Assembly (NCBI GenBank): GCA_965248925.1
Contig: CBDFLE010000005.1
Location: forward strand, 607,135-671,134
Origin: Candidatus Multivoradales bacterium
GTDB taxonomy: Bacteria; Acidobacteriota; Thermoanaerobaculia; Multivoradales; J023
Direction of reading: 5' to 3'
Length of the DNA: 64,000 bases
Below, in pieces: positions 4,369-29,246 of this stretch (its first letter is position 1; every line of letters starts with the position of its first letter). The position numbers and the translations under genes were made by a program. The notes under the pieces are model-generated. The model made no database searches, was not told where the DNA came from, and saw only the letters and a program-made list of their open reading frames with translations.

Positions 4369-5760
4369 TCAACCGCCATAGTAGCGCCAGTAGACGTAGA
4401 CCGCCGAGATCGCCAGGGTTCCCAGCATCACCGGCAGGCCGTAGGCGACGAAGCGCAGGAAAGAGATCTTGGTTCCCGAGCGCTCGGCGATGCCGAGCAT
4501 GACGACGTTGGCCGAGGCCCCGATCGGGCTGCCGTTGCCGCCCAGGCAGGAACCCAAGGCCAACGACCACCAGACCGGCAGCAGCACTGGGTGGCGCAGC
4601 ACTTGGCAACCCAGCTCTTCGGCCGAGGGACCGAGGATGGTCTCGCCCATGTCGGCCACCAGCGGCGCCATGGTGGCGACGAAAGGGATGTTGTCGAGAA
4701 AAGCCGAGGCAAATCCCGAAAACCACAGCATGGTCATCGAGGTGGCCAGCATCGACTGCTCGGTGGGGTGGGTGAGTTCGATCACTTGCCGCGAGAGATC
4801 GCTCACCAGGCCCACTTTCACCACTCCACCGACGATGATATAGAGGCCGATGAAGAAGAAGATCGTCGGCCACTCGACCTCCGCCAAAATCTCGCGCACT
4901 TCGAGGCGGGAGATCAACAGCAGCACTGCCGCGCCACCCAGGGCGATGGTCGCCGGTTCCAGGTGCAATGCACTGTGGGAGACGAAGCCGATGGTCACCA
5001 GGGCCATCACCATCAGGGATTTGCGGGCCAACACCGGATCCTTGATCAGCTGTCTCGCCGGCATCGACAGCACATGCTGCCGGCGCTGCTCGGAAACCTG
5101 CATGCGACGGCCGAAAAGCAGCCAGACGACAGCCAGCAGGGCGACCATCATCACCACTACCACCGGTGCCAGGTTGACGACAAAATCAGTGAAGCCGAGG
5201 CCCGAGCGCGAGGCGATCATCAGATTCGGCGGATCGCCAATCAAGGTGGCAGTGCCGCCGATATTCGACGCCAGCGCCTCGCCGATCAAGAACGGGACTG
5301 GATCGAGCCCCAACTCGTCGGTGATTAACAGGGTTACCGGCGCGAAGAGCAGGACCGTGGTGACATTGTCCAGCAGCGCCGAGAACACCGCGGTGAAGAT
5401 CAAGAACATCACCAAGATCGGAAACGGTCGCCCACCCGCCAGCTTGGCCAGCTTGACCGCTGACCACTCGAACAGACCGCTGCGGCCGAGAATGTTGACC
5501 AGGATCATCATCCCGATCAGCAAGTAGATCACGTTGTAGTCCACTCCCAAGCGGGGCGAATGGAAGGCCTCGGCCTGGTCGAGGACCTTGAGGCCGATCA
5601 TCAACACCGCGCCGACCAACGCCGCCTTGGTCTTGTTGACCTTCTCCGAGACGATGGCGATCAGGCTGAGCAGAAAAACGGCGACCGCGAGCCAGTAGGT
5701 CGGGTTGCTGGCAGCAATTTCGGCGGTCGTCGCCAAGGCGGAATGCACTTCGGGTTCCAT
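4369..5760 (-). CDS. ArsB/NhaD-superfamily ion transporter permease (polytopic membrane protein)
   Basis: 463 aa, about 11-12 predicted TM helices, duplicated-halves organisation and glycine-rich loops typical of the ArsB/NhaD / DASS permease superfamily. No soluble domain. Confidence 0.65.
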   Translation of the reverse strand: MEPEVHSALATTAEIAASNPTYWLAVAVFLLSLIAIVSEKVNKTKAALVGAVLMIGLKVLDQAEAFHSPRLGVDYNVIYLLIGMMILVNILGRSGLFEWSAVKLAKLAGGRPFPILVMFLIFTAVFSALLDNVTTVLLFAPVTLLITDELGLDPVPFLIGEALASNIGGTATLIGDPPNLMIASRSGLGFTDFVVNLAPVVVVMMVALLAVVWLLFGRRMQVSEQRRQHVLSMPARQLIKDPVLARKSLMVMALVTIGFVSHSALHLEPATIALGGAAVLLLISRLEVREILAEVEWPTIFFFIGLYIIVGGVVKVGLVSDLSRQVIELTHPTEQSMLATSMTMLWFSGFASAFLDNIPFVATMAPLVADMGETILGPSAEELGCQVLRHPVLLPVWWSLALGSCLGGNGSPIGASANVVMLGIAERSGTKISFLRFVAYGLPVMLGTLAISAVYVYWRYYGG

Positions 5761-5831
5761 CGGAGGTGGCTCACTCGGGTCAGTAGAGGTGGGTTTGCAG
5801 GGCCTGCCGCGAAAAGCGGTCTGGCGTTGTT

Positions 5832-6314
5832 CTAGAGTATTTTCGGGGCGACCTTTTCAAGGATAGTCCGCCGCGTCACCATGCCGACGAAGCGTCCGTC
5901 CTCAAGCACAGGCAAGGTCTTGCGCCGCCGCTCGACGATTAGCACCACCGCTCGGGTCAGCGAATCGTCCGGCGCTACCGAGTCGATGTTCTCGCTCATC
6001 AATTCTTTGACCTGACGCCCGGCCAAGCCGTCGAGGCGCTCGGTGAGGAATCCCTTGTGCAGCATCGCCGCCAACTTCTGATCGAGATCAACATAGAGAG
6101 GCACAACGCTGCGCAAGATGTCGTAGATGCCCACCAGGCCGACCAGCCGTCGGTCCTTGTCGAGGACCGCTGCGGTAGCCTGGCGGCTCGCCAGCAGCCG
6201 GGGTAGCAGGCTGGCGAAAGTCTCCTCCGGGGTGGTGGTCAGGGGATTCTCGAGCATGGTGTCGCGGATCAGCATGGGGGTGGTCTCCGGCTCTTGCAAC
6301 AGCTCTTTTGACAT
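5832..6314 (-). CDS. CBS-pair domain protein
   Basis: 160 aa with two tandem CBS motifs ('GLVGIYDILRSV', 'RFVGMVTRRTILEKV'). No other domain. Confidence 0.7.
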   Translation of the reverse strand: MSKELLQEPETTPMLIRDTMLENPLTTTPEETFASLLPRLLASRQATAAVLDKDRRLVGLVGIYDILRSVVPLYVDLDQKLAAMLHKGFLTERLDGLAGRQVKELMSENIDSVAPDDSLTRAVVLIVERRRKTLPVLEDGRFVGMVTRRTILEKVAPKIL

Positions 6315-6492
6315 CTATATCGCGCTGCGCACGGTCAGCCCGCCGCAGCGCGGCAGAGAATACGCTATTCTGTGCTGCGGCAACACCCCCTTGGCGAAAC
6401 GATGCCGAGGGCTGACTTTTGTTGACCACCCTCAAGGGGCATTGCTACGATCCGCTTTCGTGACCCCGATCCCAATCCGACTTGGAGAGTTC

Positions 6493-7638
6493 ATGCATAT
6501 CGAATTGAGCGAAGAGCAAGAGCTGCTGCGCCAGGAAGTGCGGCGATTCGCTGATGAAGTGATCAAACCCAAAGCCAAGGAAATCGACGAGAAGGGCAGT
6601 TTCCCCCGCGATTCCTACGATCTAGCCGGCGAGATGGGGCTGGCGGGTGTTTTTGTTCCCGAGCAGCACGGTGGCGCCGGCATGGACACCTTGTCCTACT
6701 GCCTGATGATCGAGGAAATCAGTCGGGCATGCGCTTCGACCGGAGTGATCCTGTCGGTCAATAACTCGCTAGTCTGCGATCCGTTGCTGAAATTCGGCAG
6801 CGACGAGCAGAAGGAGCGTTTCCTCAAGCCCTTGGCCGCGGGCGAGAAGTTGGGTTGCTTCGCCTTGACTGAGCCCGGCGCCGGTTCAGACGCCGCCGCT
6901 CTGCGCACCACGGCGGTACGTGATGGCGACGACTACTTGCTCAATGGCAACAAGATCTTCATCACCAACGGCACTGACGCTGATCTGGCGCTGGTCTTCG
7001 CCACCGTCGACCCGGCACTCAAATACAAAGGCATCACCGCTTTCATCGTCGCCGCCGACGCTCCGGGATATTCCCACGGCGCGCATGAGTACAAGCTCGG
7101 GGTCAATGCGTCCGGCACCACTGAGCTGGCATTCCAAGATCTGCGAGTACCTGCGTCACAGCGAGTTGGCGAAGAGGGTGACGGTTTCAGAATTGCCATG
7201 GCTACCCTCGATGGCGGTCGGGTCGGAATCGCCGCTCAGGCGGTGGGGATCGCCCAGGCCGCCTTCGAAGAGGCGCTGGCCTACTCACAAGTGCGTGAAC
7301 AATTTGGCACCCCGATTTCTAGTTTCCAGGCTATCCAGCACTACCTGGCCGATATGTCGACCGAACTCGACGCCGCCCGCCTGCTGACCTGGAAAGCGGC
7401 TTGGGCGAAGGAACATCAGAAGCGCTACACCCTGGAAGCCGCCCAGGCCAAGCTCTTCTCCTCGCAGATGGCGCAGAAGGTGACCAATTTGGCGTTGCAG
7501 ATCCACGGCGGCTACGGCTATATCCGCGAGTACAACATGGAGCGCTACTTCCGTGATGCCCGGATTACCGAGATCTACGAAGGTACCAGCGAGATCCAGA
7601 AAATAGTGATCGCCGACTGGGTGTTGAACAAGAGCTAA
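6493..7638 (+). CDS. Acyl-CoA dehydrogenase (short/medium-chain type)
   Basis: 382 aa from [13 protein letters not shown], the canonical ACAD N-terminus. '[14 protein letters not shown]' FAD/substrate motif; C-terminal 'IYEGTSEIQ'. The ORF-track start at 6127 is an upstream in-frame extension lacking ACAD features. Confidence 0.9.
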
Positions 7639-7653
7639 GCCGAGGTAACGAAC

Positions 7654-8805
7654 ATGTCCGAGGTCTTGATGGACTTTGCCCTGAGCGAAGATCAAACACT
7701 GATTCGTGACGAGGTCCGTCGCTTCGCCGAAGAGCGCATCTTGCCCGGCGTGGCGGAGCGCGACCGCAATCACCAGTTCCCGGCCGAGATCATCGCTGAA
7801 CTCGGTGAGCTCGGCTTTCTCGGCATGACGGTGGACGAAGAATACGGCGGCGCCGGATTCGACAGTCTCACCTATCTGCTGGCGGTCGAAGAGTTGGCCC
7901 GGATTTGTCCGGCAACGGCGGTCACCATGACAGTTACTAACTCGGTCTGCTGTTGGCCCATCGGCCGTTTTGGCAGCGAAGAACTCAAGCGGCGGGTTTT
8001 GCCCCAGCTAGCTGGCGAAGGCGCCCTGGGCGGCTTTGGTCTAACCGAGCCTGGCGCCGGCTCCGACGCTGGTGCAATGCGCACCACGGCCAAAAAAGAC
8101 GGCGAGCATTGGCTGCTCGACGGCGAGAAGGCATGGATTACCAATGCCGGAGAAGCCAAATACTTGGTGGTGTTGGCCAAGACTAACCCCGAAGCTGGTA
8201 AGCGCGGGATCACCGCATTCGTCTTGCCCACCGACACCCCTGGTTTCGAGGTGGGCACGGCGGAAGAAAAGGTTGGTCTGAAAGCGTCCCGCACCGCGCC
8301 GATCTACTTCAGCGGTTGCCGGGTGAGTGATGCCAATCGTTTGGGCGCAGAAGGGCAGGGCTTCAAGATCGCCCTCTCGACCCTCGATCATTCGCGTTTG
8401 GGTATTGCCGCCCAGTCGATCGGCATGCATCAGCGGGCGCTAGAACTGGCTACCTCTTACGCCAAGGATCGGCAGCAGTTCGGCCAGCCGATCAGCAACT
8501 TCCAGACCATTCAGTTCAAGCTTGCTGAGATGGCCACCGAGTTGGCGGCGGCTCGCGCTCTGACCTACCATGCGGCAATCGAAGAGCATTCCGCTATTGC
8601 CGGCCGGCTGGCCTCCCAGGCCAAAGTCTACGCCAGCGAGGCGGCCAACCGGGCCTGTTGGGAAGCGGTGCAGATTCACGGCGGCAATGGTTTTTGCGAA
8701 GACTACGAGGTTGCTCGCCTGTTTCGCGATGTGCGAGTGACGACCATCTACGAGGGCACCAGCGAAATGCAACGTCTGGTGATCGCGCGGCACTTGCTGC
8801 GCTGA
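7654..8805 (+). CDS. Acyl-CoA dehydrogenase (second paralogue)
   Basis: 383 aa. '[14 protein letters not shown]', 'QIHGGNGFCEDYEVARLFRD', 'IYEGTSEMQ'. 16 nt downstream of the first ACAD, same strand. Confidence 0.9.
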   Translation: MSEVLMDFALSEDQTLIRDEVRRFAEERILPGVAERDRNHQFPAEIIAELGELGFLGMTVDEEYGGAGFDSLTYLLAVEELARICPATAVTMTVTNSVCCWPIGRFGSEELKRRVLPQLAGEGALGGFGLTEPGAGSDAGAMRTTAKKDGEHWLLDGEKAWITNAGEAKYLVVLAKTNPEAGKRGITAFVLPTDTPGFEVGTAEEKVGLKASRTAPIYFSGCRVSDANRLGAEGQGFKIALSTLDHSRLGIAAQSIGMHQRALELATSYAKDRQQFGQPISNFQTIQFKLAEMATELAAARALTYHAAIEEHSAIAGRLASQAKVYASEAANRACWEAVQIHGGNGFCEDYEVARLFRDVRVTTIYEGTSEMQRLVIARHLLR

Positions 8806-12010: not shown

Positions 12011-13378
12011 TGGTCAAGAGTTGTGTATGGAGGATCAGGCGGCGATCCTGTCTTCTCGGATTCCATCGACAAATCTGACACCTCGAATGACATCGGCAAG
12101 TAGCTTGTAGCCTCGGAGTCGATGCCATCGTTTCTCGGCGCTCTGGCAGAGCTTGAAGACCATTGTCAGCATCGTTTGACGCGACAGGCAGCCGCGTGTT
12201 CTCGCAGTTCTCAGCCGCACGGTTGCGAAGGTCGACTCGATGGGGTTGGTGGTGCGCAGGTGGGTCCAGTGTTCGGCCGGAAAATCATAGAACGCGAGTA
12301 GCTCGGTGCGGTCCTTTTCCAGGCAGGTAGCCACCTTCGGGTACTTGGCCTCGTAGATGCGCAAGAAGCCGTCAAAAGCCTCCTCGGCGTTCTCGCGGGA
12401 CTCTGCCATCCAGATCTCATGTAGGGCTTGCTTGGCCTTCGGCTGCACCGACTTGGGCAAGTAGTTCAGGATGTTCCCCGTCTTGTGTACCCAGCAGCGT
12501 TGCTTCTTCGTGTTGCCCCAGACCTGAGCGAGGGCCTTCCAGAAGCCGAGTGCTCCATCGCCAATGGCCAGCTCGGGTTCAGTAGTGAGACCGTGAGTTT
12601 CGAGGCCGCGCAGCATCTCCAGCCATGAGGCTTCGCTCTCGCGATAGCCATCCTCGACGGCGATCAGTTCCTTCTTGCCGTCTTCCGTGGCCCCGATGAG
12701 CACCAACAGGCACAGCTTGGCGTCTTCGAGACGCGCCTTGCAGTGGATGGCATCGGCCCACACGTAGACGTAGCGCCTGCCGGTGAGGTCGCGGCCACGC
12801 CACGCTCCGTAGTCCTTCATCCAGACCTTTTTCAAGCGGCTGATAGTCGGAGCCGAGAGCCCGGGGGCATCCGGACCTAGAAGAGCACCGAGGGCTTCTG
12901 AGAAGTCACCGGTGGAGCTCCCGCGCAGGTAGCGCCAGGGCAGCAGCTCGCCGACACTCTTCGCGCGCCGCAGATAGGGCGGTACGATCTTTGAGTGGAA
13001 CTGAATGCCTTCGCCCTCGATGGCCGCCTGGTCGCGGACGCGAGGGACTCGTACCGGCACACCGCCAAGGCCCATCTGGATCTCGCGCTCAGGTAGGTAG
13101 CCGTTGCGCACCAGGCGTTGGTGCCCAGCCTCGTTGCGCTCCTGCTGATACTCGGTGAGGAAAGAGCCGACCTCGGCTTCGATGGCCTCTGCGAGCAGCT
13201 GCCGGGCGCCAGCGCGAAGAACCTCCGTCAGCGCGTCGCGAGTCTCTTGCGGACGACGCATCGGAACTACTGTATTCTCGGCCACGGCGTATCTCCTCGT
13301 CGTTGAGGGTGAATCGGACTGTGAAAGTCGATTCAGGATACGCCACCTTTTTTTCTCCTCATACACAACTTCCGACCA
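12011..13378 (-). mobile_element. IS256-family insertion sequence (about 1.37 kb) with imperfect terminal inverted repeats
   Basis: Terminal IRs GTCAAGAGTTGTGTATGGAGGA (12013-12034) and TCCTCATACACAACTTCCGAC (13353-13373) are reverse complements apart from 1-2 mismatches or indels. A single transposase ORF lies between them. Sits 460 bp from tRNA-Lys. Confidence 0.8.
12035..13261 (-). CDS. IS256-family (Mutator-like) transposase
   Basis: 409 aa from MRRPQETRDALTEVLRAGARQLLAEAIEAEVGSFL, the typical IS256 Tnp N-terminus. DDE region 'YVYVWADAIH...', 'CWVHKTGNILNY'. The ORF-track start at 13387 is an upstream extension. Confidence 0.85.
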   Translation of the reverse strand: MRRPQETRDALTEVLRAGARQLLAEAIEAEVGSFLTEYQQERNEAGHQRLVRNGYLPEREIQMGLGGVPVRVPRVRDQAAIEGEGIQFHSKIVPPYLRRAKSVGELLPWRYLRGSSTGDFSEALGALLGPDAPGLSAPTISRLKKVWMKDYGAWRGRDLTGRRYVYVWADAIHCKARLEDAKLCLLVLIGATEDGKKELIAVEDGYRESEASWLEMLRGLETHGLTTEPELAIGDGALGFWKALAQVWGNTKKQRCWVHKTGNILNYLPKSVQPKAKQALHEIWMAESRENAEEAFDGFLRIYEAKYPKVATCLEKDRTELLAFYDFPAEHWTHLRTTNPIESTFATVRLRTARTRGCLSRQTMLTMVFKLCQSAEKRWHRLRGYKLLADVIRGVRFVDGIREDRIAA

Positions 13379-13458
13379 TAGCTCCACCAGATGTCGATCA
13401 CCTGGAAGCCGAAGAAGAGCATCGCCTGCGAAGCTAGAGCCTTGAGCAGGCGACCGAT

Positions 13459-18674: not shown

Positions 18675-20543
18675 GTGATGTCCAAAAGCGAGCCCAAGAA
18701 GAGTCCTGCCCACGGCGAGCGCGAGTTCGCTAGCGGCATCTTGCCTCTGCTCAACTCCCAGAGCATAGTGCCGTTTCGCCGCGGCAGGCACGCGGGGCGG
18801 AAGGCTGAGGCACAGCTGCCTCAGCGCTACGAGATTCGCGACAGCGACGACGGTCGCACCCTGTATTGCAAGGAAGCACCGGCAGTGGCGGTGCAGCTAG
18901 ATCGATCCTATGCCTTCAGCGAGGCCGAGGCTCGACGGCTCGGCGAGCGGGTGGTGATGCTCGACGGCGCCGGGCAATTCGCGCCGCTGGTAGATTCCAC
19001 CGCCCAGCTCTACAACTTCGACCACCACCGCGACTGTCAGCGTGCCTTCACTTTGGCGACCTGCGAGCAAGCTCTGGTGATGGTCATCAAGGGGCTGGAA
19101 CTCGACAAGGGAGTGTGGACTCTCTACGCCAACGAGCCCGATCTCGACACTATTTTCGCCCTCTGGGTGTTGCTTAATCATCGCCGAGTCCGCAACCTCG
19201 ACACCCGCGGTCGCGATGCCCTGCTTCCCCTGCTGCGCCTCGAGGGTGCGATCGACGCCAACGGCAATGATGTAGCCGAGTTCTGTGGCCTGCCGCGCAA
19301 CCTGCTCCGCAAGACTCAAGCGAAGCTCGACGGCTTGTTCGCCAAAGAGCTGGCGGTCAAAAGCGGCGGTGAGTGGGAAACTCTCGATCACTACCAATAC
19401 GTCATCGAGATGCTCAGTGAAATCGATCAGCTGATCTACCGGCTGGAAGATTTCTCCGACTTCGTCAGCGTCGACAAGGAACTCGGCCATGTCGAGATCG
19501 GTCAAGATCGGGTGGCGGTGCTGGTCAGCGATGCCACTGGCATCTATGAGGTCGAGAAGAGGCTGAAGAAATTCTGGGGGGAGCGCTTGGGCATCGTCGC
19601 TCTGGCCAAAGATCAGCGTCACTGGACCTTGAGGCGGACGGCGTCGTTCGCCGGCATCGACCTCGATCTGGCTTACGCCAAGCTCAACTTGTTGGATCGC
19701 TCAGTAGATGGGCGGCCGGCGGAGAAGCGTTGGGGCGGCTCCGACGAGATCGGCGGTTCGCCGCGACCGGTGGGCACTGCTCTTTCCGCTGGCGAGATCG
19801 CCAAGATCCTCCGCCTGGCCTATCGTCAACCGCCACGTTGGCTAGGCCTCCAGCATGTCGCCATGGCAGCTTTGTGGACCGTTCTGCTGGGCCTACTCAG
19901 CTGGGTTCTGGTTCTTGGCTTGCGTTTCCTGCCGCAACTTCAGACCGAGGTTTTGCGGCCAACGACCGAACTTACGGTCCTTGGCGGAGTCTTGGCGCTC
20001 GCCGCTATTCTCTTCACTTTTGGCCTGGCGCGGCAGCGAACCTACATCTTTGGCTGGCGCCGTCCGGCGGGTTGGGATGGGTTGTTGTTGCTCCCGGCGG
20101 TGCTGCTTGGCGCCGCCATGGGAGGAGCTTGGGCAATTCCCATGGCTGAGCACGGCTTGGCTTCGCCGCTGCTGGCCAGCGTCGCGATCGGCGTCGGTGT
20201 GCTGGGCCGAGAGTTCTGGTTTCGCGGCGTGGTGCACGGTCGTCTCTTGCTAGATGCCCCGGTGATGTCCGTCGGCGGTCCCTGGCTGCTATCTCGAGCC
20301 AGCGCCGTGTCGGCGGTTCTTGGGGCTCTTTTTTGCCTAGGTCTGACGGCCGTTCCACTAGCGGAGGCGCCGGTCTCGACCGTCGGCTGGTTGCGCCCGT
20401 TCCTGCCAGCGCTCGGAGCACTGTTCGCCGGTCTTGGTCTGGGCATGATGCGAGAGCGTTCGCTCAGCGTCTGGCCCGGTGTTCTAGCTCAGCTGCTCGG
20501 TGTTGGCGCCTGGCTGATCTGCCGTCTATTGCTGCTCGGCTGA
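18675..20543 (+). CDS. Two-domain protein: soluble N-terminal domain of unknown function fused to a C-terminal polytopic membrane domain resembling CPBP/Abi intramembrane metalloproteases
   Basis: Residues about 1-380 are soluble with no motif recognised. Residues about 390-622 have about 6 TM helices with 'AEHGLASP' and 'GREFWFRGVVHGRLL' (an EExxxR / FxxxH-like arrangement). The CPBP assignment is tentative. Confidence 0.45.
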   Translation: MMSKSEPKKSPAHGEREFASGILPLLNSQSIVPFRRGRHAGRKAEAQLPQRYEIRDSDDGRTLYCKEAPAVAVQLDRSYAFSEAEARRLGERVVMLDGAGQFAPLVDSTAQLYNFDHHRDCQRAFTLATCEQALVMVIKGLELDKGVWTLYANEPDLDTIFALWVLLNHRRVRNLDTRGRDALLPLLRLEGAIDANGNDVAEFCGLPRNLLRKTQAKLDGLFAKELAVKSGGEWETLDHYQYVIEMLSEIDQLIYRLEDFSDFVSVDKELGHVEIGQDRVAVLVSDATGIYEVEKRLKKFWGERLGIVALAKDQRHWTLRRTASFAGIDLDLAYAKLNLLDRSVDGRPAEKRWGGSDEIGGSPRPVGTALSAGEIAKILRLAYRQPPRWLGLQHVAMAALWTVLLGLLSWVLVLGLRFLPQLQTEVLRPTTELTVLGGVLALAAILFTFGLARQRTYIFGWRRPAGWDGLLLLPAVLLGAAMGGAWAIPMAEHGLASPLLASVAIGVGVLGREFWFRGVVHGRLLLDAPVMSVGGPWLLSRASAVSAVLGALFCLGLTAVPLAEAPVSTVGWLRPFLPALGALFAGLGLGMMRERSLSVWPGVLAQLLGVGAWLICRLLLLG

Positions 20544-22934: not shown

Positions 22935-23741
22935 ATGTTCAACTCGTCTGTGTTCAGTCGTTTCTTACCGGCCGCCCTGGCGCTGACGGCGGTGGGCATT
23001 GTTGGGGTCAGGAGCGCCGCCGCAGGCGATCCGCCAGCCGCACCCGTGCCGATTGTTTTGGAGCTCTTCACTTCGCAGGGTTGTTCGAGCTGTCCGCCCG
23101 CGGATGCCTTGCTGAGTAGACTTGGCGAAGTCGACGAAAAGGGATTCCTGCTGATTCCTCTGTCCTACCATGTCGACTATTGGAACCGGCTGGGCTGGGC
23201 CGATCCTTTTTCCTCCGCGGAGTGGTCGCAGCGCCAGGCAGCCTATGCCCGAGTCCTGCCTGGAGGGCGTCTTTACACCCCGCAGTTGGTGATTAACGGT
23301 CGCCATCACGAAGTAGGCTCAAAGGGCAACCAGGTGGAAAAGCTCCTCGCTGAAGAGGGTCAGCGGCAACCCGCTGCGGAGTTGCAGGTAGAAGCCGAGC
23401 GGATGGCCGGGGGGCGACTAAAAATAGGGGTCGAAGGGCGGCTGCGCTCAGCGGTCGAAGGCTCCCTAACGCTAAGGGTGGCCCTGTGGGAGAGTGGCCT
23501 ATCCACCGCAGTCGAGCGGGGTGAGAACGCCCGTCGTAATCTCGCCAATGACTATGTCGTGCGCCGTTTGAAGAGTCGTCCGGTAGGGCTTAAGAAAGCC
23601 GGCGAAGGTCTTTCCGAGACGCTGACCCTAAGCCTAGATCCCCGCTGGCGCAGCGAGGACCTAGGGGTAGCGGTATTCCTGCAGCGGCGCGACACCTTGG
23701 CGGTGGTGGGTGCGGCGGTGAGTAGAGTGCCCGCTAGCTAG
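22935..23741 (+). CDS. DUF1223-family thioredoxin-like secreted protein
   Basis: Signal peptide. 'LELFTSQGCSSCPPADALL' and 'YHVDYWNRLGWADPFS' are the two signature blocks of DUF1223. Confidence 0.7.
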   Translation: MFNSSVFSRFLPAALALTAVGIVGVRSAAAGDPPAAPVPIVLELFTSQGCSSCPPADALLSRLGEVDEKGFLLIPLSYHVDYWNRLGWADPFSSAEWSQRQAAYARVLPGGRLYTPQLVINGRHHEVGSKGNQVEKLLAEEGQRQPAAELQVEAERMAGGRLKIGVEGRLRSAVEGSLTLRVALWESGLSTAVERGENARRNLANDYVVRRLKSRPVGLKKAGEGLSETLTLSLDPRWRSEDLGVAVFLQRRDTLAVVGAAVSRVPAS

Positions 23742-23986
23742 CTCATTTCACTCTGCGGACATGGAGAAGCGAAGGCAAGTTAGCTATAGTGCTACTCGGC
23801 GGTTGGCGAGGTGCAAGACCTCTGCGAGCCGCCGCATTATTCATCAATTTCAACCGCTTGGCCGAAGGCCCGGGCAGTGCGCCTGGAGCTTGCAACGTGA
23901 TGGCGTTGGCCGGGCGGGCGAGGGCCTGCCGCATGGTCGCGGACGACAAGGAAATAGGGGCATCGGGGGGGACGGGCGAATTCTCC

Positions 23987-25981
23987 ATGCCTGGGCAGAT
24001 CGATGCCCAGTTCAAGAAATTTGCCGACTTTGTGGACCAGTATTCCGGTCTGATCTCGCTCAAGGGCATTTTCTTCGCCAGCAACGAGCCTGAACCGGTG
24101 GGCTCTCAGTTGGTGCTGGACTTTCGCTTGGTAGATGACTTCAGGCTGTTCAACGCGCTCGGCGAAGTGGCCTGGATCGGCACCGATGACGAGCCAGTGA
24201 GGCTCAACGGTCAAGCGGTTAGCGGTATGGGAATCCGCTTTCAAGCGCTGGATGCCAAAGGCCGTAACCTGATCGTGAGAGTGCTGGAAGAGCACGTCAA
24301 CATGGGCGGCGCGCCCTTCGAAGTTGAGAGAGTTCCCCCGGTCGCCCTGCTGGATATTCCTGGTGTGGCGGCGAGGCCTGAACCTGACCTTGATCCCGGT
24401 GTTGCCGAGCAGCTCCAGGCCGAGCCCGAACTAGAGTTCGAGGAAGAAGATGAAGTGCAGCTGGAGGACGAACTCGAGTTGCTCGACGACGACGAGGTAG
24501 AATTGGCGATGGAGGAGCCAGACACAGCGACGCCCGAGGTGACGCCCGAGGCTCCTTCGTTGCCCGAGCAACCGAGTCTCGAAGCCGCGGATGGTTCGCA
24601 GGACGGCCCTGAGGCCGTCGAGGTCATCGCTGGAGCTGAGCTGGCCGACCGTCTGGGCTCTTTGCCCGGGGAACCGAGTACCGCACTTCCCGGTTTTGAG
24701 TTCGGGGAAGACTTCGATGCCCTATTCGAGACCGATTCGGATGCTGATCAACCGCCGCCGGAAAACAGCGAGGAAGACACGGTTAGCGATGTGACTCCGC
24801 CGCAAGCGTCGGTTGCAGCGGCCGCCGACGGGGATGAAGAGAAGCCTCATATCCACCGCTTGAGCAATCCCAGCGACCCCAACGATCGCAGTGGACCGAT
24901 GCCAGACTTGCAGTGGGGAGAAGAGATCCCCGGCTTGGAAAGCGAACTCGCCAACTCCCTGCCACCGGCCAGCGCGCAGCTGGACGATAGCGCCTTGGAC
25001 TCGCAACCAACGAAGCTGTCCAGCAGTGACCTATCGCCTGCCGCTGACGCCGCGGTTGAGGAGAGTGGCGATGTTCTTGGCGATCTCGGGTCGCCAGTGA
25101 CTACGACTGGGGATTTCTTGGTTCCGGCACGCGAGGAGGCCGAGTCGCCATTGGAGGAAACTCAGGACTCCTATGTCGCCTGGCGCCCGGAAGGGCTTGG
25201 CAAGAGGGGGATAGGGAGCGGGATAGCTCAGCGAGCGCGGTCTGCCCGTCCACAACTCCTCGCCCTGACTCTGATCCTTGTCTTGGCCGCTTTGGGCTGG
25301 CTCTATCGCGATACTCTCGTGGGTTGGGTCGGTGTTGGCTCACGGCCAGTTGCCACCGCCGAAGGGCCTGCTGTAGCCGCAGTCGCTCGGCCAGCGATGA
25401 CCGCAGATGAGGATACCGAGCAGCCGGCGCCAGAACCCGTGCAGGAGAGTTCTGTGACGACCGAGCCCTCAGCGGTTGTGGGCACCACGGACCCTTCCTC
25501 GCCGCCCGCCGCAGCAGCGCCCGACGGCTCCGGTGGCGAAGAGACTCCACGCGCCCGAGTTGACGATTCTTTGGCGTCCCCCGGTGGCAGGGTCGCGGTG
25601 GCAGAGCCGTTGATTTCGCGGCAGGGCAGGGCGCAGTCGGCAAGTTTGATTCGGTCCATCACCTGGAGTCAAGAAGGCGACGCTACCGTGGTCACCTTGG
25701 TCGCCGATGGCGAGCTACGATCGTCGCAGCTCAAGGTCAGCCGCTTTCGCAGCCAAGTCCGGCCGCGCGATCTGCTGGTGCTCCGAGGCATAGAGCAACC
25801 TTTCACCGGTGGCACGATGCGCATCGGCAATGATCAGTTGGAACGGATCCGCATCGGTTTCCATCCGGATCACCAACCCAGCCAGCTGCATGTGGTCTTC
25901 GACCTGGCATCGTCGGCGATTGAAACCAGCGCGCCGAGAGTCGAGGGCGATCGACTGGAGATCACTTTCCGCCGTCTTTGA
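23987..25981 (+). CDS. Multidomain protein: N-terminal non-canonical PilZ-like domain - acidic/proline-rich disordered linker - single TM - low-complexity region - C-terminal AMIN-like domain
   Basis: N-terminus (about 120 aa) resembles the Myxococcus-type PilZ family (beta-rich, 'VSGMGIRFQALD' matching the D/NxSxxG-like 'PGMGVRF' block; no RxxxR). Residues about 130-400 are strongly acidic and Pro/Ser-rich. TM 'LLALTLILVLAALGWLY'. C-terminal about 100 aa ('ATVVTLVADGEL...LHVVFDLAS...LEITFRRL') fits an AMIN-type beta-sandwich. The start is uncertain (ATG 23987 or 23933; the ORF-track 23789 extension is unlikely). Confidence 0.5.
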   Translation: MPGQIDAQFKKFADFVDQYSGLISLKGIFFASNEPEPVGSQLVLDFRLVDDFRLFNALGEVAWIGTDDEPVRLNGQAVSGMGIRFQALDAKGRNLIVRVLEEHVNMGGAPFEVERVPPVALLDIPGVAARPEPDLDPGVAEQLQAEPELEFEEEDEVQLEDELELLDDDEVELAMEEPDTATPEVTPEAPSLPEQPSLEAADGSQDGPEAVEVIAGAELADRLGSLPGEPSTALPGFEFGEDFDALFETDSDADQPPPENSEEDTVSDVTPPQASVAAAADGDEEKPHIHRLSNPSDPNDRSGPMPDLQWGEEIPGLESELANSLPPASAQLDDSALDSQPTKLSSSDLSPAADAAVEESGDVLGDLGSPVTTTGDFLVPAREEAESPLEETQDSYVAWRPEGLGKRGIGSGIAQRARSARPQLLALTLILVLAALGWLYRDTLVGWVGVGSRPVATAEGPAVAAVARPAMTADEDTEQPAPEPVQESSVTTEPSAVVGTTDPSSPPAAAAPDGSGGEETPRARVDDSLASPGGRVAVAEPLISRQGRAQSASLIRSITWSQEGDATVVTLVADGELRSSQLKVSRFRSQVRPRDLLVLRGIEQPFTGGTMRIGNDQLERIRIGFHPDHQPSQLHVVFDLASSAIETSAPRVEGDRLEITFRRL

Positions 25982-26010: not shown

Positions 26011-27585
26011 TCACTGTTCTGGGAAGCTGCCTGGCCCTGGCTTGAGACCGGCCAGCCGCTCGGGGTTGATCTTTGCCTTCACCGTCCGCCGATCAATTCC
26101 CAGTCGCCTGGCGGTCTCGGAATAGCTGCCGTTCTTGGCATAGATCAAGGTGCAGTAGCGGCCCACCAGCTCTTCGGCGCTCAACTCGGCGCCCACTAAT
26201 GCGGCATCGAGGCCATCGTCGGCCAGCTGAGAAGTGTTTGGCGGCAGGTAGCGCCGGCGGATCAGTACATTGCGAACACATTGCTCGAGTTCGCGTACAT
26301 TGCCAGGCCAACGGTAGTCCGGTCCGATGGCCAACCGCCCATTGTCGTCGCGACCGTGAAAAATCCATTCCACAGTCTCCTCGGCCAGACCTTCCGCCTC
26401 CTGCTCATCAACCAGCCGCTTGGCCAACAAAGTGATCAGTTGCTGCAGGTCGTCGTCCGACTCCGCCAGTTGTGCCGCCAGGGAGGGAGTTTCGATGACA
26501 TCGGCGCACAGCCGGTAGTAGAGATCAGCGCGAAAGCTGCCACGCTGGATCAGCTCTTCCATATCGCGGTTGGTGGCGGCGATGATCTTGCCGGCGAAAG
26601 GGCGCGAACGGGTCTCGCCGAGGCGTTCGAAGCTACGGCTCTGCAAAACTCGCAAGAGTTTTACCTGGATTGCCGGATCGACCTCGCCGATTTCGTCGAG
26701 AAAGACAGTGCCGAGTGCGCCGCAGGCTTCCAGCCACCCGGTGCGGTCCTGTTCGGCGCCGGTAAATGCGCCGCGGCGGTGGCCAAAAAGTTCAGACTCG
26801 ATCACTGCCGGCGCCAATGCAGAGAGATTCAGGGGGAAGAAAGAGTCCTCGGGGTCGGCTGGAAAACAGCCTGTGTTGGCGTTAAACGGCAAGTAGCGTG
26901 CTAGTCCGATAGCCCTGGCTACCAGCTCCTTGCCGGTGCCGGAAGGGCCGGTGATTAGGGTTGAGATCTCCCCCATGCGGGGGAAGAGCGAACGCCGGTA
27001 ACGGTGCAAGTCGTGGGTGAAGATGGACTGCCAGACCGTGGCACGCAAGCGCGCGGCCGGCATCGATCCGCCGAGGATGTAGTGAAAGCAGTAGTGAAAG
27101 GCTCGGCGCACTTGGAAGAAGCAGGCGAATAGGTGGTCTGTTTCCAACCTGCCGGGCAGTTCGAGCGGAAGTTCGTTGAACAGACGCGCGACCTCGTCGC
27201 GGAATTTAGGCCAGAACGAGACCGGTCGCGACAGGCCGCTAGCCGTGCTGAGAAAGTGAAAGAAATCCAGCTGGTACTTGTCGTAGAGGAAGTAAGTTGC
27301 GACCTCGTAATAGAGCTGTCGCTCGTGCAGGGTGCCTTGTCGCCCCTGACGCAGGCGATCTCCTACCCGCTGGGTGATCCGAGCTGCCCGGCGCCCCAAT
27401 TCTTGCACATTAGGGTTGGGCAGACGGAAGGACTCGGTGCGATGCCAAACCGTGCCTAAATCGACAAAGTCTTCTCCCAGCGCTAGCTGCTCACAGCGAA
27501 TCCTCTCTGGCAGGAAAGGGTTGCACTGGGTGAGACCGGCGATCGCCTCGGCAAAGTTGTGTTCCTTGGAATCGAAGAGGGGCAT
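26011..27585 (-). CDS. Sigma-54 enhancer-binding protein with a non-receiver N-terminal sensory domain (unknown fold) + AAA+ activator + Fis-type HTH
   Basis: '[16 protein letters not shown]', 'ESELFGHRRGAFTGA' (the GAFTGA sigma-54 contact loop), 'DEIGEV', 'RLLRVLQ', 'IIAATNRD', 'YRWPGNVREL'. C-terminal 'YSETARRLGIDRRTV' HTH. The first about 200 aa have no REC/GAF/PAS signature I can recognise. Confidence 0.85.
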   Translation of the reverse strand: MPLFDSKEHNFAEAIAGLTQCNPFLPERIRCEQLALGEDFVDLGTVWHRTESFRLPNPNVQELGRRAARITQRVGDRLRQGRQGTLHERQLYYEVATYFLYDKYQLDFFHFLSTASGLSRPVSFWPKFRDEVARLFNELPLELPGRLETDHLFACFFQVRRAFHYCFHYILGGSMPAARLRATVWQSIFTHDLHRYRRSLFPRMGEISTLITGPSGTGKELVARAIGLARYLPFNANTGCFPADPEDSFFPLNLSALAPAVIESELFGHRRGAFTGAEQDRTGWLEACGALGTVFLDEIGEVDPAIQVKLLRVLQSRSFERLGETRSRPFAGKIIAATNRDMEELIQRGSFRADLYYRLCADVIETPSLAAQLAESDDDLQQLITLLAKRLVDEQEAEGLAEETVEWIFHGRDDNGRLAIGPDYRWPGNVRELEQCVRNVLIRRRYLPPNTSQLADDGLDAALVGAELSAEELVGRYCTLIYAKNGSYSETARRLGIDRRTVKAKINPERLAGLKPGPGSFPEQ

Positions 27586-27820
27586 ATTGATCAGCTCGTT
27601 GAAAGTGTCAGTCTAGCAGGCCCGTCCGGGGATGAAGGCTGGGTCTTAGGCGCAGCTTGACCCCAGCAATAGGGGAGAGTAGACTGGCGTAAGTAAGGCG
27701 GATAAACCGCTGTGCAAGCCGCCGGTTGAGAAAAGCAATCAGGTGGCACTGAAGCATCCGGGCAGGTAGGTGCGAGGAGACGCGGCTTCTGGGCGGGCAG
27801 TTTTAGAGAGAGACTCCAAG

Positions 27821-27990: not shown

Positions 27991-28482
27991 ATGGTAGTTG
28001 AAAAAGAACTTACTCGCATTCTGACGTTGCTCCGCAACAAGATCCGAGAACGCGGTTTCACCCAGCTCGAGGTCCAGGACGCGCTCGGCTGGGGTCGCAG
28101 CTACATCAGTCAGCTGCTGACTAAGCAGAAGTCTCTTCGGGTTGAGCAGGTGCTGCTCATTCTCAAGGTCATCGGCGTTGAGCCAGTGGAGTTTTACAGT
28201 GAACTCTACCATTTCATGCCGGTAGAGCCTGGCATCCGCAATATCGATGAGTTCGCAGAGGACGGCCCACAGCCTCGCCAGCTGCCGGCGGCCAGTCTCA
28301 CTAGCGACGGCAGTGAACCGGATGCCGATGCTCTTCTGCGCAGCCTCAACGAAGTCAAGCACATGGTTCATGGCGTGCTGCAGGTGATGATGGACAAGAA
28401 CATCATGACCATGGAGGAAATCAGCGACGCGGTGAAGGAGAGCGAACTCAGCAGCCGCGCTGCCGTGAAGAAGCCCAACTAG
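27991..28482 (+). CDS. XRE/Cro-C1-type helix-turn-helix transcriptional regulator
   Basis: 'GFTQLEVQDALGWGRSYISQLLTKQKSLRVEQVLLILKVIG' is a canonical HTH_XRE. Acidic C-terminal tail. The gene and its upstream region have lower GC than their surroundings. Confidence 0.65.
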   Translation: MVVEKELTRILTLLRNKIRERGFTQLEVQDALGWGRSYISQLLTKQKSLRVEQVLLILKVIGVEPVEFYSELYHFMPVEPGIRNIDEFAEDGPQPRQLPAASLTSDGSEPDADALLRSLNEVKHMVHGVLQVMMDKNIMTMEEISDAVKESELSSRAAVKKPN

Positions 28483-28487
28483 GTCTG

Positions 28488-29246
28488 CTAGTCGGAGGGC
28501 TCAAAGCTCTGACTCATCGCCAGCCTGAGCTGGTCGGCGAGTTCCTTGCGTTGGTCTGCAAGGATAGGTGTGCTGCCAAAACGCACCTGGATGTCGATCT
28601 GGGGCAGCTGCAAGAGGCGCAGGAAGTGCGGTGCGAAGTCGCTATCGCCCCACCAAGAGACCCACTCTTGGGCTGAGCGTTGCGGATCCCGCGTGGCGTA
28701 GCTCAAAGTCACATAATGCACCGGCACTGCCCGCTTGGCCGGGTAGTCGAGCAATGAGGGCTTGAAAGGCAAGAGAACATCGCCTCTGCCGGTCGTGCCT
28801 TCGGGAAAGAGCAGCACCCCCAGTCCGCGAGCGCGGCTGTGATCGATCAGCCGCAGCACTCGCAATAGGTCTCGCTTGCGGCTGCGGTCGACAAAGATCG
28901 AATCGGCGGCCCGTAGGATCCCCCCAACTAGCGGCCAGCCCCGCAAGTCTAGCTTGGCGATATAGGCTACATCGACCAAGCTGCCGAGGACGATGATGTC
29001 GAGATAGGTTTGGTGGTTAGAGACCAGGAAGAAGTCTCCCCTCGGCGGCTCTCCCTGACAGTCGACCCGCAGGCCGATCACCCGTCGCAGGGATCTTGAC
29101 CAAGTTCTAAAGATCCAATTTCGCCACCGCAACTGAGCTTTGGGAAACCAGCCGCGGGTAGGCCAGCTGATCAGTAAACCGGCGTAGCTGAGCAGGGTTA
29201 GCAAGGCAATCACCTTGATTCGCCAGATGCGTCGCAGAGTGGACAT
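28488..29246 (-). CDS. Lysophospholipid (1-acyl-glycerol-3-phosphate-type) acyltransferase, PlsC family
   Basis: N-terminal TM. 'FLVSNHQTYLDIIVL' (HX4D catalytic motif), 'FPEGTTGRG' (acyl-acceptor pocket motif). Confidence 0.8.
   Translation of the reverse strand: MSTLRRIWRIKVIALLTLLSYAGLLISWPTRGWFPKAQLRWRNWIFRTWSRSLRRVIGLRVDCQGEPPRGDFFLVSNHQTYLDIIVLGSLVDVAYIAKLDLRGWPLVGGILRAADSIFVDRSRKRDLLRVLRLIDHSRARGLGVLLFPEGTTGRGDVLLPFKPSLLDYPAKRAVPVHYVTLSYATRDPQRSAQEWVSWWGDSDFAPHFLRLLQLPQIDIQVRFGSTPILADQRKELADQLRLAMSQSFEPSD

Follow-up and report, generated by a model that had tools for sequence, protein, structure and literature searches.

PilZ proteins are the most widespread effectors of cyclic di-GMP (c-di-GMP). 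The AMIN domain is the septal-targeting domain of the amidase AmiC and has been predicted to localize periplasmic complexes; none of the ten types of AMIN architecture catalogued in the same study contains a cytoplasmic signaling domain (PMC2572700). As summarized in a later paper (PMC12403147), AmiC is brought to the septum by its AMIN domain, and PilQ to peptidoglycan at septa and poles (PMC2572700, PMC10653833). A third point of reference is HubP, which combines a periplasmic LysM domain, a transmembrane (TM) helix, an extensive, strongly acidic cytosolic region and a TPR module; its LysM domain is needed for polar targeting and suffices for it, and clients attach to the acidic modules (PMC8789113). 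Here we analyze a gene at positions 23987-25981 of a 64,000-nucleotide (nt) stretch of DNA, hereafter the window, from Candidatus Multivoradales bacterium (Acidobacteriota; contig CBDFLE010000005.1, positions 607,135 to 671,134). Sequence features and structure models predict that its product is a bitopic inner-membrane protein with a degenerate PilZ domain inside and an AMIN-fold domain outside. A previous sequence-only reading of this gene had proposed the order PilZ-like domain, acidic proline-rich disordered region, TM helix, second linker and AMIN-like domain, and each of these structural claims was borne out. That reading had also called the architecture unusual. We found no published description of it, but the layout is standard in a large Acidobacteriota family rather than singular.

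The open reading frame (ORF) spans 23789-25981 on the plus strand, and translation from the ATG at 23987 yields a protein of 664 amino acids (aa). An identical public protein (P0001), encoded on a 2.36-Mb contig, is annotated from the ATG at 23933 and has 682 aa. Alignment favors the 23987 start, with which the N termini of orthologues line up; the domain content is unaffected by the choice. The features of the gene are as follows.

23987..25981, plus strand: whole gene, 664 aa and stop codon; the alternative annotated ATG at 23933 gives 682 aa
23987..24301, plus strand: predicted cytoplasmic PilZ-fold domain, aa 1-105 (PF07238, AlphaFold2, Foldseek, PDB profile)
24305..24328, plus strand: GGxPF[DE][VL] motif, GGAPFEVE, aa 107-114 (family N-terminal alignment, orthologues)
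24329..25198, plus strand: acidic, proline-rich, predicted disordered cytoplasmic linker, aa 114-404 (composition, no tandem repeats)
25199..25252, plus strand: positively charged juxtamembrane patch GKRGIGSGIAQRARSARP, aa 405-422 (positive-inside signal)
25253..25306, plus strand: single predicted TM helix QLLALTLILVLAALGWLY, aa 423-440 (hydropathy maximum 1.9)
25307..25627, plus strand: Ala/Pro/Ser-rich, predicted periplasmic spacer of ~107 aa, aa 441-547 (composition, family comparison)
25628..25975, plus strand: predicted divergent AMIN-fold C-terminal domain of 116 aa, aa 548-663, isoelectric point (pI) 10.3 (AlphaFold2, Foldseek, homologues)

Profile, motif and structure comparisons agree with the earlier assignment of a PilZ-like N terminus. 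The Pfam PilZ hidden Markov model (HMM; PF07238) matches aa 23-101 with 27.5 bits, above its cut-off of 22.5, and the GMGIRF block noted previously lies at aa 80-85. The best NCBIfam match is TIGR02266, a PilZ paralogous family of Myxococcus xanthus, which scores 47.5 bits, below its cut-off of 68.7. The window protein shares with that family the GMG[IV]RF block and a C-terminal helix; however, TIGR02266 is a family of M. xanthus, whereas the family of the window protein was seen only in Acidobacteriota in our scans. An AlphaFold2 (AF2) model built from a 43-sequence family alignment (predicted local distance difference test score [pLDDT] 91; predicted template modeling score [pTM] 0.83) shows the six-stranded beta-barrel of the PilZ fold, with a helix behind it at aa 90-105, and the top 14 matches to this model in a Foldseek search of the PDB are all PilZ domains.

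The closest of these structures are the stand-alone PilZ proteins of Xanthomonas (7lkm, 4fou, 3dsg and 3cnr; E = 1e-5), and the same proteins are retrieved when the N-terminal sequence profile is compared with PDB sequences (E = 9e-10). The canonical receptors MotI, YcgR, MapZ and Alg44 rank below them in Foldseek. According to their PDB titles, 7lkm is a PilB-PilZ complex, 4fou is a PilZ-FimX complex and 3dsg has "trivial c-di-GMP binding activity"; the Xanthomonas-type PilZ, the nearest to the window copy, acts as an adaptor between proteins and not as a receptor for a nucleotide. Neither the Xanthomonas protein (XAC1133/XC1028) nor the window domain contains RxxxR or [DN]xSxxG, and in both a C-terminal helix and tail follow the barrel. 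Although the two domains are alike in these respects, the Xanthomonas protein is soluble, has ~117 aa and bridges PilB and FimX, whereas in the window protein an acidic tether of ~290 aa links the domain to a TM helix and on to a periplasmic domain, with no pilus genes nearby.

The absence of RxxxR, which the sequence-only reading had pointed out, holds for both start codons: the aligned columns read GGTGE in the window protein versus RIFRR in canonical relatives. The second motif, [DN]xSxxG, is degenerate as well, since the corresponding LISLKG (aa 22-27) retains the S and G and has lost the D/N. It is unlikely that c-di-GMP is the signal for the window copy. Directly after the PilZ helix lies GGAPFEVE (aa 107-114), an instance of a GGxPF[DE][VL] motif that is conserved family-wide and in the orthologues and that we infer to be a candidate partner-binding peptide.

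At the other end of the protein, the modeled fold and the homologues indicate that the C terminus belongs to a divergent AMIN-fold branch, mostly missed by the current Pfam model. An AF2 model derived from a 71-sequence alignment of the ~115-aa domain is all-beta with nine strands (pLDDT 97; pTM 0.89). When this model was compared with the PDB using Foldseek, ranks 1-4 were all AMIN domains (probability 1.00; TM-score 0.61-0.68): Escherichia coli AmiC (4bin; E = 9e-4, TM-score 0.67), M. xanthus PilQ (3jc8), Neisseria meningitidis PilQ (4av2) and the isolated B2 domain of N. meningitidis PilQ (4aqz). The matches that follow are unrelated beta-sandwiches of the CS and alpha-crystallin types, with much weaker statistics. 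When the homologous domains were isolated and compared with Pfam, AMIN was the only family to recur (15 of 71 domains at E <= 0.1; best, 3.3e-7), and 5 of 91 full-length relatives match AMIN at E < 0.01 (best, 7.6e-9). The window domain resembles the AMIN domains of AmiC and PilQ in having the same all-beta fold across its whole length and the same predicted periplasmic location, but in those proteins AMIN forms the N terminus of a secreted amidase or secretin, whereas here it forms the C terminus of an inner-membrane protein.

The AMIN-like assignment made in the sequence-only reading thus stands as far as the fold search and the AMIN-positive relatives are concerned, but not by the Pfam AMIN model (PF11741), which fails on the window protein itself. 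AF2 modeling of both termini, which that reading had suggested, gave confident PilZ and AMIN-fold models; of the two Pfam scans it proposed, the one for PilZ passes its cut-off and the one for AMIN does not.

As the best PDB matches of the N terminus are PilZ proteins in PilB-PilZ and PilZ-FimX complexes and PilQ is among the AMIN fold matches of the C terminus, the protein could be a type IV pilus accessory factor; the PilB ATPase would then be contacted by its XAC1133-like PilZ domain, and its AMIN-like domain would bring it to the site of pilus machine assembly. However, pilus genes were found neither among the ~18 larger window ORFs scanned, nor at the locus of an orthologue (L057), nor in the sister-clade operon described below, and we regard this role as very unlikely.

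The PilZ domain is followed by a linker of extreme composition. Its 291 residues (aa 114-404) include 78 D/E, 9 K/R and 36 P (27% D+E, 3% K+R and 12% P), with a pI of ~4, and the 308 residues that separate the PilZ domain from the TM helix have a net charge of -64. The acidic, proline-rich region had earlier been put at ~270 residues; its composition was confirmed and the acidic string quoted for it, EEEDEVQLEDELELLDDDEVELAMEE, is found at aa 152-177, but the region is longer than described. Could the acidic region stem from mis-assembled repeat DNA? We rejected this explanation, as Tandem Repeats Finder reported three trivial 1.9-copy repeats in the gene and no others. Both points on which the sequence-only reading had staked itself therefore came out in its favor: the PilZ HMM scores above its cut-off, and repeat mis-assembly does not account for the acidic region.

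The only hydrophobic segment of the protein, at aa 423-440, agrees with the single TM helix expected. It is immediately preceded by GKRGIGSGIAQRARSARP, a patch rich in K and R that, by the positive-inside rule, points to an N-in orientation with the N terminus in the cytoplasm; the C-terminal domain is predicted to be extracytoplasmic. In the linkers of orthologues, composition is kept and neither sequence nor length is (total protein lengths, 562-999 aa). Four orthologues (L057, L058, L060 and L061) share a motif early in the linker, F-x-A-P-W-G-x-E-L-P-x-x-P-x-E-x-L-[ED]; in the window protein this linear motif is replaced at aa ~146-165 (24422-24481) by a plain acidic run, LEFEEEDEVQLEDELELLD.

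How widespread is this architecture? We searched representatives of independent 50%-identity clusters exhaustively with HMMER, using the last 130 aa of the window protein. The C-terminal domain was detected in 735 cluster representatives at E <= 1e-3 and in 146 at E <= 1e-10, and in most of the 150 best representatives it forms the C terminus of a protein of 400-1000 aa. A family HMM finds a PilZ-like N terminus in 90 of 151 proteins, and Pfam PilZ matches 51 of 91 relatives scanned. Among the proteins with both domains, 83 of 84 have a strong hydrophobic helix between them, with a median of 4 K/R in the 15 residues before this helix and 1 in the 15 residues after it (n = 84). Cytoplasmic linkers across the family are 195 aa long at the median (19% D+E, 16% P), and in 73 of 84 proteins they carry a net negative charge, placing the window linker at the acidic and long extreme of the range; the periplasmic spacers have a median of 97.5 aa, with 18% P.

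Genomic loci were collected by scanning one genome per GTDB species with a 7-sequence subset and a single narrow peptide pattern, which may bias the taxonomy. All 56 confirmed loci are in Acidobacteriota, mostly in metagenome-assembled genomes of Thermoanaerobaculia, with one in Holophagae and one in "Ca. Multivoraceae"; within these scans, the family is provisionally restricted to Acidobacteriota. L005 and L006 each contain two family members in the same orientation (adjacent in L005 and separated by other ORFs in L006); the family therefore expands through local duplication. Word-index searches recovered little (2 matches with the full protein, none with the C-terminal 244 aa and 10 fragments with the domain profile) because of the low-complexity linker. 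This poor yield, together with the low-complexity middle of the protein, might suggest an artefact, in which the ORF was mis-called or mis-assembled or two genes were fused by chance. Such an explanation has a vanishingly small chance of being correct: the gene contains no real tandem repeats, the identical protein P0001 is encoded on a 2.36-Mb contig in public data, and the conservation of the same layout in most of the 150 listed cluster representatives and in the 56 genomic loci refutes it.

Another group of relatives bears on the location of the C-terminal domain. In 19 representatives of ~290-470 aa, the only other recognizable element is a hydrophobic N-terminal leader, judged by eye to resemble a signal peptide, followed by two domains of the C-terminal type, or three in P0050 (P0005, P0010, P0024, P0029, P0030, P0039, P0043, P0045, P0050, P0055, P0067, P0068, P0079, P0081, P0094, P0117, P0121, P0141 and P0149; an example at a genomic locus is L019, 5806-6936). 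The signal-peptide-like leaders of these tandem paralogues suggest that the C-terminal domain works outside the cytoplasm. Such paralogues also raise the possibility that the domain is a beta-sandwich for protein-protein contacts, with the tandem paralogues or with an outer-membrane partner, in which case the window protein would be a trans-envelope scaffold unrelated to murein. The divergence of the domain, which Pfam AMIN mostly misses, and the CS and alpha-crystallin-type sandwiches among the next-best fold matches are in line with that possibility. However, every one of the top four structural matches is an AMIN domain, and in the sister clade the neighboring gene encodes an AMIN-less cell-wall amidase, which is consistent with murein targeting; we therefore think a scaffold of this kind unlikely.

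A neighbor-joining tree of the N-terminal domains separates two clades, of ~42 and ~40 representatives. In the larger clade, [DN]xSxxG is present in all members and RxxxR also in 32 (for example, PPRIFRRVPF...NISLGGMF). In the smaller one, both motifs are gone, except in four members that have [DN]xSxxG but not RxxxR. This motif-poor clade includes the window protein, which clusters with P0002, P0006, P0049, P0057 and P0115. As the loss extends across the clade, it is old and does not reflect the decay of a single gene.

Since about half of the family has RxxxR and [DN]xSxxG intact within the same architecture, and the PilZ HMM is above its cut-off on the window protein, we considered whether the latter could be an inside-out c-di-GMP receptor, in which the nucleotide would alter the state or clustering of the AMIN-like domain and, hence, a periplasmic process. 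LapD provides a precedent for c-di-GMP-driven periplasmic output (PMC3032553). The likeness to LapD is one of concept, in that a cytoplasmic domain of a c-di-GMP-associated type is tied to an output on the other side of the inner membrane. LapD, however, binds c-di-GMP and uses an EAL domain that is degenerate, a HAMP domain and a pair of TM helices, whereas the window copy has a disordered linker and lacks the motifs. A receptor of this kind is distinctly unlikely here. RxxxR is missing from the window copy and its clade, as is the D/N of the second motif (apart from the four members mentioned), the closest structures are the non-binding Xanthomonas PilZ proteins, the protein contains no HAMP or dimerization module, and a disordered linker of ~290 aa followed by a single TM helix is a poor route for conformational signaling.

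The sister clade, in which the motifs are retained, occurs in a different genomic setting. At 32 of the 56 loci, the PilZ-AMIN gene adjoins an Amidase_3 gene (PF01520; E = 9e-48); in 31 of these the amidase gene lies downstream, in the same orientation, and in L016 it lies upstream. These loci are L007, L011, L012, L016, L017, L020, L023-L026, L029-L031, L033, L035-L041, L043-L045, L047, L049, L051 and L054. After the amidase follows an MreB-like gene (PF06723; E = 4e-24) in 31 of the 32 loci, with L017 ending first; in L016 both genes lie upstream. The MreB-like proteins are ~80% identical between loci. In L035, for example, PilZ-AMIN occupies 4879-6330, Amidase_3 6436-7497 and the MreB-like gene 7512-8522, and the gap of ~100 nt between the PilZ-AMIN and amidase genes is typical of the loci for which coordinates were compared. 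Frequently, the cluster continues with an M50B-like membrane protein gene, a gene for a small HTH_31 protein and one for a TPR protein. The gene order has the appearance of an operon in Thermoanaerobaculia. One locus, L042, has the MreB-like gene with no amidase detected.

Motif content at these loci was read from crude ORF calls where the calls resolve the N terminus. Canonical motifs are present in 21 of the 32 loci, where the N terminus is typically MVDYSNIPRDSRRVPLE...NISPGGMF; at the remaining 11, the N-terminal calls are truncated or over-extended or the motif pattern is unmatched. The one amidase representative that was scanned is anchored in the membrane at its N terminus and carries no AMIN domain. 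Together, these observations suggest that in the canonical clade AMIN is supplied in trans to an AMIN-less amidase under the influence of c-di-GMP, and that the ancestral role of the family was to link the cytoplasmic c-di-GMP state, or a cytoskeletal element, to hydrolysis of the cell wall at set positions. One could go further and envision an envelope-organizing system of Acidobacteriota, in which AMIN was split from the amidase onto a PilZ protein and c-di-GMP, with or without an actin-like filament, would set the site or timing of a septal-type amidase. The window copy would then be a c-di-GMP-blind paralogue that anchors other clients, perhaps the XRE-type helix-turn-helix (HTH) protein encoded nearby, whose sequestration at the membrane or at a landmark would be that of a transcription factor. 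This scheme is speculative, and we would rather bet against it than for it.

For the window protein itself, we lean slightly toward a peptidoglycan-anchored hub or adaptor comparable to HubP and FimV. The AMIN-like domain, presumed from its modeled fold to be a peptidoglycan-targeting module, would bind peptidoglycan, probably at septal or polar sites as in AmiC and PilQ, and this binding would fix the protein at an envelope landmark, with the ~107-aa periplasmic spacer bridging the gap to the murein. On the cytoplasmic side, the PilZ domain, the GGxPFEVE peptide and the acidic tether would recruit clients independently of c-di-GMP. By such an arrangement, a cytoplasmic signal may be coupled to a fixed position in the envelope.

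The window protein and HubP/FimV each have a periplasmic domain of a peptidoglycan-binding type, one TM helix, a large acidic cytosolic region and an interaction module (PMC8789113). However, HubP and FimV use LysM and TPR domains and are N-out, whereas the window protein uses AMIN-like and PilZ domains and is predicted to be N-in, the two are not homologous, and the acidity of the window protein, unlike that of HubP/FimV, does not come from regular repeats. Pfam LysM and TPR models have no match on the window protein. We would therefore class it as an analogue, and not a member, of the HubP/FimV group. The only other bitopic inner-membrane AMIN protein that we found described is the AMIN-bearing FliO of Campylobacterota and others, which likewise places AMIN in the periplasm and a small beta domain in the cytoplasm and has been proposed to tether a machine to the envelope (PMC12403147). 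In that protein, however, AMIN is N-terminal, the cytoplasmic domain is FliO and not PilZ, and the setting is the flagellar export gate.

Several observations weigh against a hub of this kind. On the window C terminus, PF11741 gives a partial match of 13.5 bits, below its cut-off of 20.5 (E = 0.08), and it has no match on the full-length protein. In addition, a family profile of the C-terminal domain retrieved no AMIN chain from PDB sequences, so that in the PDB the relation is visible by fold comparison only. For both reasons, the domain could bind a different ligand, and peptidoglycan binding and localization are read from the modeled fold. As no amidase, MreB-like, pilus or division genes were found near the window copy, its link to the cell wall is borrowed from the sister clade. 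A PilZ domain devoid of both motifs might also bind a nucleotide in a non-canonical manner. Finally, the HTH protein considered here as a client is encoded ~400 nt away, with an inserted gene between in the window, and may be a syntenic bystander.

When full texts were searched for PilZ in combination with "AMIN domain", the one paper retrieved was an unrelated study of the flagellar motor, and we found no description of such a fusion. What is new here is the PilZ-TM-AMIN architecture and the divergent AMIN branch; the component domain families were already known. If our interpretation is correct, the window protein would provide a direct physical route from cytoplasmic second-messenger or adaptor signaling to a fixed site in the cell wall and would be an Acidobacteriota counterpart to the HubP/FimV landmarks, while in the sister clade c-di-GMP-linked control of an amidase for cell separation, with AMIN received in trans, could be put to the test. 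Because the current Pfam model largely fails to see this sizeable AMIN branch, surveys of architecture that rely on Pfam would miss the PilZ-AMIN fusion.

The genes that flank the PilZ-AMIN gene in the window are as follows.

Ends at 23741, plus strand: DUF1223 protein, upstream (ORF scan)
26011-27585, minus strand: sigma-54-type activator, convergent, with AAA+ at aa 206-361 and no receiver domain
27991-28482, plus strand: XRE-type HTH_3 protein, 163 aa (Pfam HTH_3, E = 4e-9)
28488-29246, minus strand: acyltransferase, convergent, conserved in orthologous loci

The sequence-only reading had raised synteny with the convergent sigma-54 enhancer-binding protein, and this did not hold up: the activator is absent from the orthologous loci L057, L058, L059 and L062, and the conserved neighbor is instead the HTH_3 gene. 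At those four loci (L058, L059 and L062 being metagenomic), PilZ-AMIN is followed after ~400 nt on the same strand by an HTH_3 gene with no activator between them, so that in the window the activator appears to have been inserted between PilZ-AMIN and HTH_3. The HTH_3 proteins of the orthologous loci are 48-57% identical to that at 27991-28482, including 54% for the neighbor of P0002 (L057), and in L058, L059 and L062 a convergent acyltransferase that is ~50% identical to that at 28488-29246 comes next. With 48-57% identity, the HTH_3 protein is conserved as well as or better than its PilZ-AMIN partner. It is possible that the HTH_3 protein is a partner of PilZ-AMIN or the product of a co-regulated gene.

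Any link to the sigma-54 activator was rejected. Besides the absence of the activator from the orthologous loci, no plus-strand match to the -24/-12 promoter pattern was found upstream of the PilZ-AMIN gene, and the 40 matches in the window as a whole, versus 34 expected, are at the level of chance. The ~200-aa N terminus of the activator has no family match, and its best NCBIfam matches, RtcR and NifA, are far below their cut-offs.

The C-terminal ~90 aa of the HTH_3 protein have no family match. We also considered whether this protein is RodZ-like; this identity is unsupported, as only generic XRE-type HTH models and repressors match. The HTH_31 protein of the sister-clade cluster is distantly similar to it (31% identity over 80 aa). 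Upstream of HTH_3, within a spacer of ~400 nt and lower GC content, a short block at window positions 27660-27700 is conserved in L058, L057 and L062 (consensus, ~GGCG-GTAA-N4-GGCGTAA), while the rest of the spacer is not; this block may be an operator or promoter element.

Further upstream in the window, the plus-strand ORF at 18675-20543 encodes a 622-aa protein with no Pfam match, consisting of a soluble N-terminal half and a hydrophobic, probably multi-pass C-terminal half. A gene for a Mutator-family (IS256-like) transposase lies at 12035-13387 on the minus strand (Pfam Transposase_mut, E = 6e-59).

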